DNA of 61,939 bases, filler included. It is 2 parts of 2 records of this genome, joined end to end, with 100 filler letters (N's around TTAATTAATTAA, not from the genome) between each part and the next. Parts side by side here need not be neighbours in the genome. Positions count along the whole stretch, not along the records: positions 1 to 29,958 come from SRR20825006_2640; 1 more part is not named here. One strand, written 5' to 3'. Position 1 is the first letter of the stretch; each line of letters starts with the position of its first letter. Shown here one piece after another: positions 27,582-32,372 of this stretch. A program made the translations under genes and the position numbers. The notes beneath the pieces are model-generated. The model worked only from the letters and a program-made list of their open reading frames with translations. It did not search any database and was not told the DNA's origin.

Positions 27582-28322
27582 ATGCAAATACTGGGAGTAG
27601 ACGTAGGAGGAACCGGAATAAAAGGCGTTCCTGTAAATCTCGAAAAAGAAGAATATTTAGGCGAACGTTTTAGATTAGACACTCCCGTTCCTCGTGAACC
27701 CAAAGCCATGGTCAACACTATTGCCGAAGTTGTAAAACATTGGGACTGGAAAGGTCCGGTAGGTGTAGGTTTTCCAACGGTAATACATAAGGGTAAAGCG
27801 CTTGAACATGGTAATCTTGATAAATCCTGGTTAGGTGTTCAGGTAGATGATATGATTTCGCAGAAAATAGGCTTACCTGTAAATGTGATGAATGATGCTG
27901 ATGCTGCCGGCCTTGCAGAAATGGAGTTTGGTGTAGGCAAAGGCGTTGAAGGTCTCGTTATCGTAGTGACGGTGGGCACAGGTATAGGCAGTGGCGTTTT
28001 TTATAACGGCGAACTTATACCAAATTTTGAGTTGGGCCAGATGCGCTACAAAAAGAAGAAAATCATTGAAAAATACGCATCGCGCCGTGTGCGCCTTGAT
28101 AATAATATGAGTTTTAAAAAGTGGGGAAAACGCTTTAATAAATTCATACAACTTACCATGCAAGTTTCACAACCAGAAATGATCATCATAGGTGGTGGTG
28201 CCAGTAAAAACCTGGACGAATACATCAAATATTTAAAAACAGATGTACCTATCGTGGCGGCACACACCCGTAATCATGCGGGTATTATCGGAGCAGCATT
28301 AGGCGCAAGACATTTGCTTTAA
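27582..28322 (+). CDS. ppgK: ROK-family sugar kinase, polyphosphate glucokinase-like
   Basis: GVDVGGTGIKG, NDADAAGLAE, GTGIGSG, PNFELG, NHAGIIGAA. Confidence 0.8.
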   Translation: MQILGVDVGGTGIKGVPVNLEKEEYLGERFRLDTPVPREPKAMVNTIAEVVKHWDWKGPVGVGFPTVIHKGKALEHGNLDKSWLGVQVDDMISQKIGLPVNVMNDADAAGLAEMEFGVGKGVEGLVIVVTVGTGIGSGVFYNGELIPNFELGQMRYKKKKIIEKYASRRVRLDNNMSFKKWGKRFNKFIQLTMQVSQPEMIIIGGGASKNLDEYIKYLKTDVPIVAAHTRNHAGIIGAALGARHLL

Positions 28323-28436
28323 TTCCAAATTTCTCTAACAAAACTGCCTTAAGGCAATCGTTAAAGCATTGGTTGAAAAACGAATTTTCAATTTCAAGTC
28401 AAGCTTCAAAATATTTAACCCTTAGGCGGCGCCAAT

Positions 28437-28467
28437 AAAAAAAGAGGTCTTATAGACCTCTTTTTTT
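28437..28467. terminator. Bidirectional terminator between ppgK and folD
   Basis: AAAAAAAGAGGTCT-TAT-AGACCTCTTTTTTT. Confidence 0.9.
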
Positions 28468-28485
28468 ATTTTAGTACACCTACAA

Positions 28486-29373
28486 TTAAGATTGAAGATC
28501 GTTATGTCTTGCTCTAGCGAGCAAAGTATTCTTTAATAACATCGCGATCGTCATAGGTCCTACTCCACCCGGTACTGGCGTAATGAAATCTGCTTTTTTA
28601 CTTACCTCTGCAAAATCTACATCACCTGCGATTCGGTAACCGCGCTCTTTAGTTTCGTCTGGTACACGGGTAATTCCCACGTCGATAACCGTTACATTTT
28701 CCTTAACCATATCAGCCTTTAAAAACTCAGGAACTCCTAAGGCTGTAATAATGATATCTGCTTGCTTGGTAAGTTCTTCAAGATTTTTGGTGCGACTGTG
28801 CGTCAAGGTTACAGTGCTATCTCCAGGCCTTCCTTTCTGAGACATCAAAATACTCATAGGACGACCTACAATGTGACTACGACCAATTACAACAGTATGC
28901 TTTCCTGAAGTCTCTACGTTATAGCGTTTGAGTAATTCCATAATTCCAAACGGAGTTGCAGGTATAAAAACCGGCATATCTTGCGCCATTTTACCAAAGT
29001 TCGTTGGGTGAAACCCATCTACATCTTTGTCAGGATCTACAGCCAATAACACTTTTTGTTCGTCAATATGCTTTGGTAGCGGCAACTGAACAATATAACC
29101 ATCAATCTCGGGATTATTATTCAGTTTATTGATGTGATCCAAAAGTTCTTCTTCTGTGGTTTCTTCCGGCAATTGAATTAAGGTAGACTCAAAACCAATA
29201 CGCTCACAAGCACGCACTTTGCTCCCTACATAGGTCAAACTTGCGCCATCGTTACCTACCAAAACAGCAGCCAAATGAGGCACTTTCTCACCTCGTTCTT
29301 TCATCGCCTTTACTTCTTCGGCGATCTCGTTTTTTAAATCGTTACTGGTTTTCTTTCCGTCTAAGATTGTCAT
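28486..29373 (-). CDS. folD: Methylenetetrahydrofolate dehydrogenase/cyclohydrolase
   Basis: [34 protein letters not shown]. Confidence 0.98.
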
Positions 29374-29380
29374 TTTATAT

Positions 29381-29413
29381 CAGTTGGCAGGAACAGTTGG
29401 CAGTAATCAGTTT
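29381..29413. repeat. CAGT-core microrepeat array (7,6,7,7 spacing) downstream of the four-helix-bundle gene
   Basis: CAGTTGG CAGGAA CAGTTGG CAGTAAT CAGTTT. Confidence 0.85.
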
Positions 29414-29772
29414 GAACCAAATTTTCCCGGATTATTGATCATATAGTTTATTAATTTACCTACTTCCTGACTTTTCTCAAGAGTAGCCAAATACATTTCC
29501 TTTGAAATATAATTACAAGCTGCTGCAAACTTTAACCACGTTTGCGTCTCTCCATTTTCAGCATCTCAATCAGTCAACTTACTTACAAAATGTTTCTGAT
29601 ACCTTCGTTTCCGGTAGGCTTCAGACATATTTGCACAGACAGCTCTGGATGATCTTCTTATTTGATCAGTAAGTGAATATTGCTCTTCTTTAGGAAAAGC
29701 TTTAGAGGTTTCGAAAATATTCATAGCTAAATCAAAAGCTTTCTGATATGCTAACAAATCTTCTACCCCCAT
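29407..29772 (-). pseudogene. Four-helix-bundle protein (23S rRNA IVS protein/Avd-like family) with one in-frame TGA
   Basis: LLAYQKAF, FPKEEQYSLTDQIRRSSRAVCANMSEAYRKR; the frame continues past TGA (29566-29568) as DAENGETQTWLKFAAACNYI...EVGKLINYMINNPGKFGSN to TGA at 29407-29409; 121 codons before the final stop. Confidence 0.85.
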
Positions 29773-29810
29773 AACTTCTATTTTTCATCAACAAATAAAG
29801 ACAGTCACAA

Positions 29811-29882
29811 ACTGCTTACTGAGACTGGCTACTGTAAACTGCAACTACCTACTGTAAACTGAGACTGCTCGCTGCAAGCTGC
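29811..29882. repeat. ACTG-core microrepeat array with a 20-nt higher-order period (6+7+7)
   Basis: ACTGAG ACTGGCT ACTGTAA / ACTGCA ACTACCT ACTGTAA / ACTGAG ACTGCTC GCTGCAA starting at 29818, 29838 and 29858. Confidence 0.9.
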
Positions 29883-29958
29883 TTAGCGCATTTGATTCAT
29901 CATCTGCATCATTTTGGCTCCGCCGCCACCTTGCATCATCTTCATCATTTTGCTCATT
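29883..29958 (-). CDS. ffh: Signal recognition particle protein, C-terminal fragment
   Basis: Translates MSKMMKMMQGGGGAKMMQMMNQMR*, the Met-rich M-domain tail; upstream of folD, the order I recall for Flavobacteriaceae. Confidence 0.8.
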
Positions 29959-30058
29959 NNNNNNNNNNNNNNNNNNNNNNNNNNNNNNNNNNNNNNNNNN
30001 NNTTAATTAATTAANNNNNNNNNNNNNNNNNNNNNNNNNNNNNNNNNNNNNNNNNNNN
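29959..30058. other. Artificial contig-joining spacer
   Basis: 44 N + TTAATTAATTAA (stops in all six frames) + 44 N; composition changes abruptly across it. Confidence 0.97.
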
Positions 30059-31309
30059 CATGGCCAGACACATGGAACAGCCCGGTTCACGCCATTCAAA
30101 ACCGGCCTCAACAAAGACCTTGTCCAGGCCTTCTTTCTCCGCCTGCTGCTTGACCAAGCCGGAGCCCGGCACCACCAATACCTGCTTGACGCTACCGGCC
30201 TTCTGACGGCCCTTGGCCACTTCCGCCGCGGCGCGCAAATCTTCGATGCGCGAATTCGTGCAAGACCCGATAAAGACCCGGTCCACCTTGATATCCGTCA
30301 CCGGCATGCCTGGCGTCAGGCCCATGTACTCATAAGCACGGGTCATGCCGGAGCGTTTGACTTCATCGCTCTCCGCCGCCGGGTCCGGCAAGTTGGCATC
30401 CACCGGCACCACCATTTCCGGGCTGGTGCCCCAGGACACTTGGGGCTTGATGTCCGCCGCATCAATGTTGACCTCCTCATCGAAGCGGGCATCGGCATCA
30501 GAGACCAGCGTACGCCAGTACGCTTCCGCCTTGTCCCAATCTGCACCCTGGGGTGCAAACGGGCGGCCTTTCACATAATCGATGGTCACATCATCCACCG
30601 CCACCATGCCCGCACGGGCGCCGGCTTCGATGGCCATGTTGCAGACCGTCATGCGCCCTTCCATGCTCAAGCTGCGCATGGCACTGCCCGCAAACTCAAG
30701 CGCATACCCGGTGCCGCCAGCGGTACCAATGACGCCAATGATGTGCAGCACCACGTCTTTCGCTGTCACGCCCGCGCCAAGCTCACCCTCAACCGAGACG
30801 CGCATGTTGTTCATTTTCTTGGCCACCAAGGTCTGGGTCGCCAATACATGCTCTACCTCACTGGTACCAATACCGTGAGCCAGGCAGGCCAAGGCACCGT
30901 TGGTAGAGGTGTGGGAGTCACCACAGACGACGGTCATGCCGGGCACGACGGCCCCCTGTTCCGGCGCCATCACGTGCACGATCCCCTGGCGCACATCACC
31001 AATTCCGAATTCAGTAATACCGAATTCACGGGTGTTGTCTTGCAGTGTCTGCACCTGAATCCGCGAGGTATCGTCAGCAATATCGGCGGCACTCTTGAAC
31101 GGCGTGGTCGGCACGTTGTGATCAATGGTGGCCACACTGGCACTGGTCCGCCACGGCTGACGGCCCGCCAGACGCAGGCCCTCAAACGCCTGCGGCGAGG
31201 TCACCTCATGGATGATCTGGCGATCAATATAGATCAGCGCAGAGCCATCTTCGCGCTGGGTAACGAGGTGGGCTTCCCACAATTTGTCATAGAGGGTCTT
31301 GCCTGCCAT
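30059..31309 (-). CDS. leuC: 3-isopropylmalate dehydratase large subunit (3' end lost in gap)
   Basis: [38 protein letters not shown]. Confidence 0.98.
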
Positions 31310-31394: not shown

Positions 31395-31496
31395 TAATTA
31401 ATGTAGAACTACGCCATCAATAAATCCAATTCATATTTTTCATTTTTAAGATAACCAATTATTATCCCCCGTACCGACACTGTGGATGCCCCGGGA

Positions 31497-32372
31497 ATGA
31501 TCGATACCCCAACGCTAACCGCCTTTATGGCCGTTGCCGAAACCGGCTCATTTTCTGCCGCGGCTGAGCGCCTCTACATCACTCAGCCCGCCATCAGCAA
31601 GCGGATTGCCCTGCTGGAACAACAGCTTGAGGCCCGCCTGTTTGACCGCGTAGGTCGCCAGATCCAGTTGACCGAAGCCGGCCGCTCACTGCTGCCACGG
31701 GCACGCCAGGTACTGATGGACGTGGAAGACATGGCCCGCGCCATCCACGATCTGTCCGGGGAAGTGGGCGGTAAATTGCGAATCGGCACCAGCCACCATA
31801 TTGGACTGCACAGATTGCCGCCGGTTCTACGCCAGTTTTCCCGGGATTACCCGCTGGTGAAACTGGATATCCATTTCATTGATTCCGAAGAAGCCTGGGA
31901 AGGCGTATTGCACGGGGAGCTGGAAATGGGGGTGGTCACCCTGCCACCACAACCGGATGAGCGCCTGCACAGCGAGGTGATCTGGAACGATCCACTGGTG
32001 TTCATGTGCGCCCCGGAGCACCCACTAGCCAAGCAGGAAAACCTGACCCTGGAAGCCTTCACCGATCACAGTGCCATCCTGCCTTCACCAGTCACCTTTA
32101 CCCGCGGTATCGTGGAGCGGCTGTTTGATGAGCACAACCTGAAGCTGGATATCGCCATGTCCACCAACTACCTGGAGACCATTCACATGATGGTGTCCAT
32201 CGGTCTGGGCTGGAGCGTATTGCCCGCCACCATGGTAGATCGAGGCATGGTGCAGCTACCCGTGGACGCTCCGCTTCCACAGCGCCAACTCGGCGTCGTC
32301 ACGCATCCGGCCCGCAGCCAGTCCAACGCGGCAAAAGCCTTCCTGCGCGCCCTGCGCAGCCAGATTGTCTGA
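31497..32372 (+). CDS. LysR-family transcriptional regulator divergent from leuC
   Basis: HTH SFSAAAERLYITQPAISKRIALLE, LFDR, LTEAG. Confidence 0.95.
   Translation: MIDTPTLTAFMAVAETGSFSAAAERLYITQPAISKRIALLEQQLEARLFDRVGRQIQLTEAGRSLLPRARQVLMDVEDMARAIHDLSGEVGGKLRIGTSHHIGLHRLPPVLRQFSRDYPLVKLDIHFIDSEEAWEGVLHGELEMGVVTLPPQPDERLHSEVIWNDPLVFMCAPEHPLAKQENLTLEAFTDHSAILPSPVTFTRGIVERLFDEHNLKLDIAMSTNYLETIHMMVSIGLGWSVLPATMVDRGMVQLPVDAPLPQRQLGVVTHPARSQSNAAKAFLRALRSQIV

Follow-up and report, generated by a model that had tools for sequence, protein, structure and literature searches.

Gene order from ffh to folD is kept in the Flavobacteriaceae folD loci that we sampled, and in the DNA described here the spacer between the two genes is taken up by a third gene, for a small four-helix-bundle (4HB) protein, which is bracketed by two arrays of 7-nt repeats in opposite orientation. 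The question that this locus raises is why a gene should be enclosed in this way between two co-directional host genes, and whether the arrays work with its protein, within the transcript or as DNA.

The stretch of DNA analysed (the window, 61,939 nt in full) is made up of two contigs, with a GC content of about 0.39 in the left and about 0.58 in the right, and the cassette is placed at the extreme end of the low-GC contig (1-29958). The FolD protein encoded there is 99% identical to that of Leeuwenhoekiella blandensis MED217. The low-GC contig comes from a Leeuwenhoekiella near L. blandensis. At the DNA level the window and MED217 share just 84% identity over 4.4 kb, with a folD dS of 0.51, which makes the source probably a sister species. 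Genome G001 matches the high-GC half only, without a match to the cassette region; as the two contigs differ in GC and G001 matches the right one alone, the assembly is mixed (a co-culture or a bin), the right half being from another organism than the left. That right half (30059-61939) carries a leuC-like ORF (30011-31309) and a LysR-like ORF (31482-32372). On the left contig's minus strand the order is ffh end, 72-nt array, 38-nt leader, 4HB gene, 33-nt array, 7 nt and folD, with the following features:

29959-30058, no strand: N run with a stop-codon linker, the artificial joint of two contigs that differ in GC.
29883-29958, minus strand: final 25 codons of ffh with the TAA stop (29883-29885), cut short by the contig end (full-length ffh in MED217, L003).
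29811-29882, minus strand: 5′ arm in the mRNA sense, about 10 CAGU-core units with 6/7/7 spacing, running from the base after the ffh stop.
29773-29810, minus strand: A/U-rich leader of 38 nt between the 5′ arm and the 4HB ATG, diverging from MED217 at an approximately neutral rate (alignment counted by eye).
29405-29772, minus strand: 4HB gene of the PF05635/TIGR02436 family, 121 codons plus stop, with an in-frame TGA at 29566-29568 (codon 69).
29381-29413, minus strand: 3′ arm in the mRNA sense, ACUG-core units, overlapping the 4HB stop codon (29405-29407) and ending 7 nt before the folD ATG.
28486-29373, minus strand: folD (bifunctional methylene-THF dehydrogenase/cyclohydrolase), the co-directional downstream host gene, with its ATG at 29371-29373.

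The ffh stop lies at 29883-29885 and the 5′ array therefore begins at the adjoining base. An earlier note on this DNA had described two arrays, ACTG at 29811-29882 and CAGT at 29381-29413, of the same 6/7/7 spacing and opposite orientation, filling the interval between ffh and folD together with the gene. The positions of the units bear out the coordinates, the spacing and the orientation; the interval is also as described, with an array directly after the ffh stop and 7 nt to the folD ATG, except that ffh is here only a 25-codon stub at the contig joint (full-length ffh lies in the same place at MED217 and at 76 other folD loci). Read on the plus strand, ACTG or near-ACTG units stand at 29811, 29818, 29824, 29831, 29838, 29851, 29858 and 29864, and GCTG units at 29871 and 29878 complete this array (spacing 7/6/7/7 and so on; TRF period 20, score 74), while the other array has CAGT units at 29381, 29394, 29401 and 29408 and a CAGG at 29388 (TRF period 13, score 54). 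These two scores are the highest among the eight TRF rows for positions 1-29957, and the two arms are the only strong tandem arrays in the same 30-kb contig. Matches to ACTG-N(2,3)-ACTG-N(2,3)-ACTG number five in the 61.9-kb window, all of them within the two arms, against an expected 0.02, and 0 of 100 shuffles reached five. The arms are imperfectly complementary to each other (71% over 34 nt), and the two 13-mers for which the note had claimed 12 paired positions do pair at 12 of 13. Array length differs by a 13-nt indel between the window and MED217. Within the 3′ arm, we counted by eye about one difference from MED217 in 44 nt, compared with 37% at folD synonymous sites; this degree of conservation indicates that the 3′ arm, which is also the folD leader, is under purifying selection.

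The enclosed gene belongs to PF05635 (E 3.9e-30, 104.6 bits with a cut-off of 33.8, profile positions 1-105 of 106) and to TIGR02436 (E 6e-28, 97.2 bits with a cut-off of 24), in both cases above the curated cut-off and over the full domain; PF05635 and PF22296 were its sole matches, and its nearest solved relatives, 2rld and 2gsc, have five chains each. It had been described as a four-helix-bundle gene of about 120 codons, which is right as to the family and the length (121 codons) and overlooked that the frame is broken by the TGA at codon 69, where the MED217 ortholog reads TGT (Cys). Contigs of runs X18 and X19 match the cassette without a differing letter (X19 at a depth near 5000), so the TGA is a property of the strain, although the two runs belong to a single study and are perhaps not independent of the assembly. 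For the 4HB gene, comparison with MED217 gives an omega of 0.09 overall and still 0.13 downstream of the TGA, so the break is a recent nonsense mutation of this strain, in a gene that purifying selection had kept until then. Recoding of the TGA was considered and rejected: all three stop codons interrupt other copies, the MED217 codon is Cys and the contig's other genes are normal in table 11.

Folding of the ffh-folD interval as minus-strand RNA was expected, from the earlier note, to join arm to arm, possibly in several registers. Both expectations hold for the predicted structure (MFE -138.8, z -2.7), in which 30 arm-to-arm pairs join 29865-29824 to 29411-29369, are kept in the centroid and use a register other than the one first quoted. 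Within the predicted closing helix lie the 4HB stop, the folD leader and the margin of the folD AUG. RNA-library contigs from two studies bridge both arms (X1, a marine metatranscriptome, record 5; X5, records 22 and 23), and one X18 contig spans ffh, the cassette and folD, although RNA libraries may include DNA and a contig is no proof of one continuous transcript. The terminal letters of this X18 contig we take to be a cDNA template-switch primer, and parts of the 4HB gene are uncovered in the RNA-library contigs. An X19 joint of 29211 to 29904 (about 2% of the depth, 29-letter side) falls outside the arms and was taken as a chimera or a foreign read. A search of 28300-29957 with Rfam at a permissive threshold gave no rRNA, and no hit inside the cassette. 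Just 3′ of folD (28373-28542), several unrelated Rfam sRNA/miRNA families overlap, all sub-threshold (best E 0.0042); such overlap is the usual mark of a generic hairpin, here perhaps the terminator of the unit.

Our preferred reading, to which we give a probability of roughly 0.5, is that of a co-transcribed, hairpin-closed cassette, which would behave in mRNA as an intervening sequence (IVS) does in rRNA. We propose that the ffh-folD spacer is filled by a promoterless 4HB gene, which has an A/U-rich leader of its own and is enclosed by the inverted 7-nt arrays, and that ffh, cassette and folD share one transcript. In this RNA the arms would zip into an imperfect long-range helix with the ORF looped out, setting the ffh stop beside the folD start and masking both the 4HB stop codon and the folD leader. 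By analogy with the 23S rRNA IVSs, the helix is likely to be a substrate of RNase III, so that the insert could sit in the operon without breaking it; expression of the cassette and of folD may then vary with the state of the helix, be it formed, melted by ribosomes or cut. The periodicity of the heptamers would probably come from repeat-unit turnover by slippage, and possibly from binding of a pentameric protein.

The arrangement is not confined to ffh-folD. MED217 has seven PF05635 genes, all between co-directional genes, and all seven have period-7 arrays on both flanks, each copy with a core word of its own that is inverted between the flanks (AGAC/GTCT, TTATT/AATAA, TTCAA/TTGAA, GTTT/AAAC, TAG/CTA, CAGT/ACTG and GGTTAG/CTAACC). 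The earlier note had asked whether other family members are flanked in the same manner, and they are: in these 7/7 copies, in 2/2 copies of the high-GC genome G001, of another phylum, which have inverted heptamer arms, and statistically in 83 copies for which flanks were available. These comprise 35 from 16 Leeuwenhoekiella-genus genomes, 19 from folD loci and 29 from 61 Flavobacteriaceae genomes, being the best-scoring matches listed with DNA, among which intact copies are over-represented. Most of the 83 have their own repeat word, inverted between the flanks. One of the MED217 copies (L087) is atypical, with about 14 nnnnTAG units upstream and, downstream, more direct units followed by inverted CTA units; at another atypical locus (L146), CAGT arrays lie in direct orientation on both sides within 80 nt.

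Arm complementarity in these copies exceeds that of the controls. When each 5′ flank was aligned locally with its own 3′ flank in reverse complement, the median score was 25 (54 genes, 13 sites), compared with 15 for flanks of different sites (95th percentile 21) and 16 for ordinary genes of the same loci; 9/13 sites lie above the non-cognate 95th percentile and 6/13 above that of the ordinary genes. Self-matches in the two arms of the 54 genes peak at lag 7 (0.53 and 0.54 versus 0.43 in controls). Median duplex energy over the 83 genes was -26.9 kcal/mol for cognate and -17.6 for non-cognate arms (MWU 3e-19), and a closing stem of at least 10 flank-to-flank pairs was present in 67/83 folded cassettes versus 37/83 with a swapped 3′ flank (Wilcoxon 9e-9); eight of the 83 folded without any long-range flank pair. 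Co-orientation is strict: a co-directional ORF lies on both sides in 81/83, with median gaps of 48 and 42 nt, and the two exceptions are truncated loci. The flanks are also polar, with G in excess of C in 68/83 5′ flanks and C in excess of G in 53/83 3′ flanks, both stronger than in ordinary genes.

This co-orientation and flank polarity, together with the predicted closing helix and the RNA-library contigs that bridge the arms, count for a role in RNA. Against it count the strand symmetry of the pairing and the behaviour of the units. Among mismatches in cognate arm alignments, sense G.U (42) was not enriched over A.C (55), the non-cognate figures being 78 to 88, and sense and antisense duplex energies did not differ (sense better in 37/83); if selection acted on the stem as sense RNA alone, G.U should be favoured, and the wobble result counts against an RNA helix. 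At one orthologous site, four 5′ units have changed from AGAT to AGAC and the 3′ arm is still ATCT, giving C.A mismatches; therefore unit turnover within an arm outpaces compensation between arms. The 7-nt periodicity is unneeded for a simple stem, which also speaks against our preferred reading, as do the imperfect complementarity of the arms (71% over 34 nt) and the eight cassettes that lack a long-range pair.

Its main rival, or complement, is a protein-repeat partnership like that of REP/RAYT, in which a pentameric 4HB protein binds to the heptamer arrays, whether in DNA or in RNA. Each gene would sit between its cognate repeats, and ORF-less arrays or hairpins of the same word would be regulated, protected or homogenised by the protein; arm complementarity would be a by-product of the same word being read on both sides, so that this account is compatible with a hairpin-closed cassette. 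We regard it as possible, if rather unlikely. The 7-nt periodicity of both arms, the copy-specific words and the purifying selection on the ORF all agree with it, and the absence of an RNA-specific wobble signal fits strand-symmetric recognition. The five-chain structures 2rld and 2gsc also point to pentamers, as does the Xanthomonas S23p protein, which is a homopentameric toroid according to work cited in the available part of PMC4990558. Moreover the CAGT word is dispersed in MED217, where the three-unit pattern has 79 matches (45 forward and 34 reverse) at about 25 loci, solo hairpins included, against 0 and 0 for the reversed-pattern control. Six of these CAGT-array regions were inspected: two of them are hairpins without an ORF, located in one case between two genes and in the other between tRNA genes, and the remaining four adjoin a dispersed repeat of another kind, about 100 nt long. 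Because ORF-less arrays and hairpins of the same word occur in MED217, the arms are not merely an accessory of the gene. The 4HB gene is found at only 1 of the approximately 25 CAGT-array loci, which counts against a partnership. So does the fact that words differ between fairly close proteins at one site: the 86%-identical L083 and L094 have AGAC versus AGAT 5′ units, and the 57%-identical L084 and L101 have very unlike words. The gene is, in addition, often lost or broken (internal stops in 13/75 matches in the genus and in 18 among 150 matches listed in the family), and arrays persist in some empty sites.

Two of the elements met in this survey of MED217 deserve description for themselves. 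Near 765.8 kb (L155), a solo CAGT/ACTG heptamer hairpin with a 7-nt loop stands between two tRNA genes. The repeat of about 100 nt (L147, L148, L151 and L152, near contig positions 302.7, 308.3, 320.2 and 321.6 kb) has a small internal hairpin and adjoins heptamer arrays of differing words (CAGT, AGAC/AGAT and AAGAG); it looks like a MITE-like element embedded in heptamer arrays.

A further alternative is a mobile element at the DNA level, with the arms as terminal inverted repeats or recombination sites of a small cassette that moves among intergenic spacers and rRNA helices via a host or trans-acting enzyme. We consider this quite unlikely. The case for it begins with the number of sites, at least 13 in one genus and its relatives, the cassette always exactly filling the stop/start spacer; strand-symmetric pairing would suit it too, and rRNA IVSs have been proposed to be transposition remnants or mobile elements by authors cited in the available part of PMC4990558. 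The comparison of relatives that the earlier note had called for revealed empty, filled and decayed ffh-folD sites alike: a host tree could be built with 76 loci, of which 50 are empty, 18 carry the 4HB gene at full length and eight give a match that is fragmentary or divergent (L017, among these eight, is perhaps an intact but divergent gene). On this 76-taxon tree, filled-or-remnant versus empty requires at least 20 changes, 15 of them forced by well-supported branches, which counts for mobility; the mean for shuffled labels is 21.9, so that presence and absence are about as scattered as these.

The protein tree stands against mobility. Its 13 site groups need the minimum of 12 changes of site, compared with a shuffled mean of 30.4, and 0/200 shuffles were as low; no near-identical copies are common to two sites. 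Among the ffh-folD proteins, the Leeuwenhoekiella copies separate from the Algibacter/Tamlana-side ones just as the hosts do, and dS between the window and MED217 is 0.48 for the 4HB gene and 0.51 for folD. Since the proteins cluster by site and follow their hosts, and 4HB dS equals folD dS, the ffh-folD cassette is old and vertically inherited, descends with its flanks and has been lost many times. The remains of these losses are irregular: in L. marinoflava nothing but the final 22 codons and the 3′ arm is left, other loci retain pieces of the ORF, several 'empty' spacers retain CAGT units, and at one locus (L070) both arms are present without the gene. They look like irregular deletions that left one arm or part of the ORF, not clean excisions. 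Short X1 contigs of low depth, which join the folD start via 29 unrelated letters to part of the CAGT array, hint that a close relative has an ORF-less allele. Co-direction with both neighbours, as seen in 81/83, is nothing that a DNA transposon would need, and no transposase, integrase or RT was found among the 10 neighbouring ORFs within 13 kb of the cassette, in agreement with the earlier note. The possibility, raised in that note, that the arms serve as mobility sites is not supported: strict clustering by site, co-descent with folD and irregular deletions give no sign of recent transposition on the time scale sampled.

Several spacers in which the 4HB cassette is absent hold something else. 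In six empty ones (L040, L045, L049, L050, L053 and L068, from Tamlana, Seonamhaeicola, Jejuia, Algibacter and Hyunsoonleella), a different repeat element fills the spacer: arrays of GTTAGAA or GTTAAAA and, after them, a conserved motif about 25 nt long (GTCATGCTGAGCGCAGTCGAAGCAT-like). Empty Leeuwenhoekiella spacers (L005, L010 and L012) have ORF-less hairpins of GTTAA.. / ..TTAAC period-7 units, which may be arm relics after loss of the gene or an independent hairpin element. Apart from these, an uncultured flavobacterium has a long period-7 array, (ACAACCA)n, immediately upstream of folD and at the end of a contig (L041, 1-92).

Least likely of all is that the arrays are a neutral by-product, slippage-prone microsatellites or terminator-like hairpins of AT-rich spacers that the gene tolerates without any functional link: variation of array length and units between close relatives (such as the 13-nt indel), heptamer arrays of other words in empty ffh-folD spacers and the absent wobble signal would all suit this, yet the controls already disfavour it, as nearly every copy shows the association and it is specific to the arms, the 3′ arm has changed far less than synonymous sites, the flanks are polar, ordinary genes of the same loci are without complementary flanks, and the two arms are the only strong tandem arrays in 30 kb of contig.

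PF05635/TIGR02436 is a very large family for which, to our knowledge, no function has been established outside diversity-generating retroelements (DGRs), and we know of no explanation for the excess of intergenic heptanucleotide repeats in bacteria. Our observations bring the two together: the design is fixed, oriented and embedded in operons, and it matches that of the rRNA IVS. A wider and, in our estimate, unlikely generalisation would be that heptamer-array hairpins are a general bacterial operon-internal element with PF05635 pentamers as the cognate partner, the gene-carrying cassettes, rRNA IVSs included, being its 'autonomous' form. If so, the protein would read or maintain the arrays, ORF-less arrays and hairpins being spread through the genome, and the arms would be an orientation-dependent RNA or single-strand DNA device that keeps the element silent between cistrons. 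The function of the family and the excess of the repeats can both be tested in a cultivable marine flavobacterium, L. blandensis MED217, with its seven cassettes of seven different words, for which sister species offer natural controls in the form of filled, empty, decayed and nonsense-mutant sites. There is also a consequence for annotation, as cassettes inside housekeeping operons may affect the expression of downstream genes.

Turning to known systems, REP/REPIN elements and their RAYT are a case of a single vertically inherited gene with its own short repeat inverted on its flanks and dispersed through the genome. The 4HB cassette is like this in that its gene is flanked in inverted orientation by its own repeat, and the CAGT word of the arrays is dispersed in MED217; it is unlike it in that the protein is a small helical bundle and not an HUH (Y1) transposase (PF05635 and PF22296 being its sole matches), and the repeats are tandem heptamer arrays, not single palindromes. 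A transposon or MITE with terminal inverted repeats was rejected, given the site-locked protein tree, the irregular remnants and the lack of a transposase within 13 kb. The DGR accessory protein Avd is a related four-helix bundle (PF22296 bAvd, E 3.4e-12; NF033474, E 3.9e-9). However, NF033474 scores 36.8 bits where the NCBIfam cut-off is 80, and no reverse transcriptase or template/variable repeat lies within 13 kb; identity with Avd is ruled out by the sub-cut-off score and the absence of an RT in that interval.

Intergenic heptanucleotide repeats of Xanthomonas, Nostoc and Beggiatoaceae are of period 7, often form convergent pairs and vary in length between relatives, as described in the available parts of PMC4692102 and PMC4679880. 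Unlike these, the ffh-folD arrays enclose a PF05635 gene, and a term search of the available text of both papers gave 0 occurrences each of 23S, S23 and four-helix. In the literature outside subscription journals, we found no description of PF05635 genes between inverted heptamer arrays outside rRNA.

The closest likeness is to the ORF-bearing IVSs of 23S rRNA (Coxiella burnetii, Leptospira). The available part of PMC4990558 describes the Coxiella IVS as closed by a 28-bp terminal stem, whose loop holds an S23p ORF, with three or two GACAGAT heptamers upstream of the ORF according to the strain and an RNase III cut at the first repeat; decay of the ORF is described there as well. The cassette resembles these in its PF05635 membership, in an ORF placed in the loop of a stem of complementary ends (here from fold prediction) and in a decay-prone ORF; it also has, like them, tandem heptamers of variable number upstream of the ORF, as seen in the 13-nt indel relative to MED217 (PMC4990558, available part). 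It differs in its host, which is the mRNA spacer between the ffh stop and the folD start instead of helix 45 of 23S rRNA, and in its ends, both arms being long period-7 arrays of about 70% complementarity whereas the IVS has a near-perfect stem of 28 bp. Excision by RNase III has been shown for the IVS, whereas the cassette is known from its sequence and a predicted fold, and the cassette ORF, in contrast to that of the IVS, was under purifying selection until recently, judged from its omega. For the IVS-like cassette of the earlier note, recent mobility thus finds no support, and what holds is the anatomy and a kinship of design with the rRNA IVS: an S23p-family ORF, heptamers and complementary ends.
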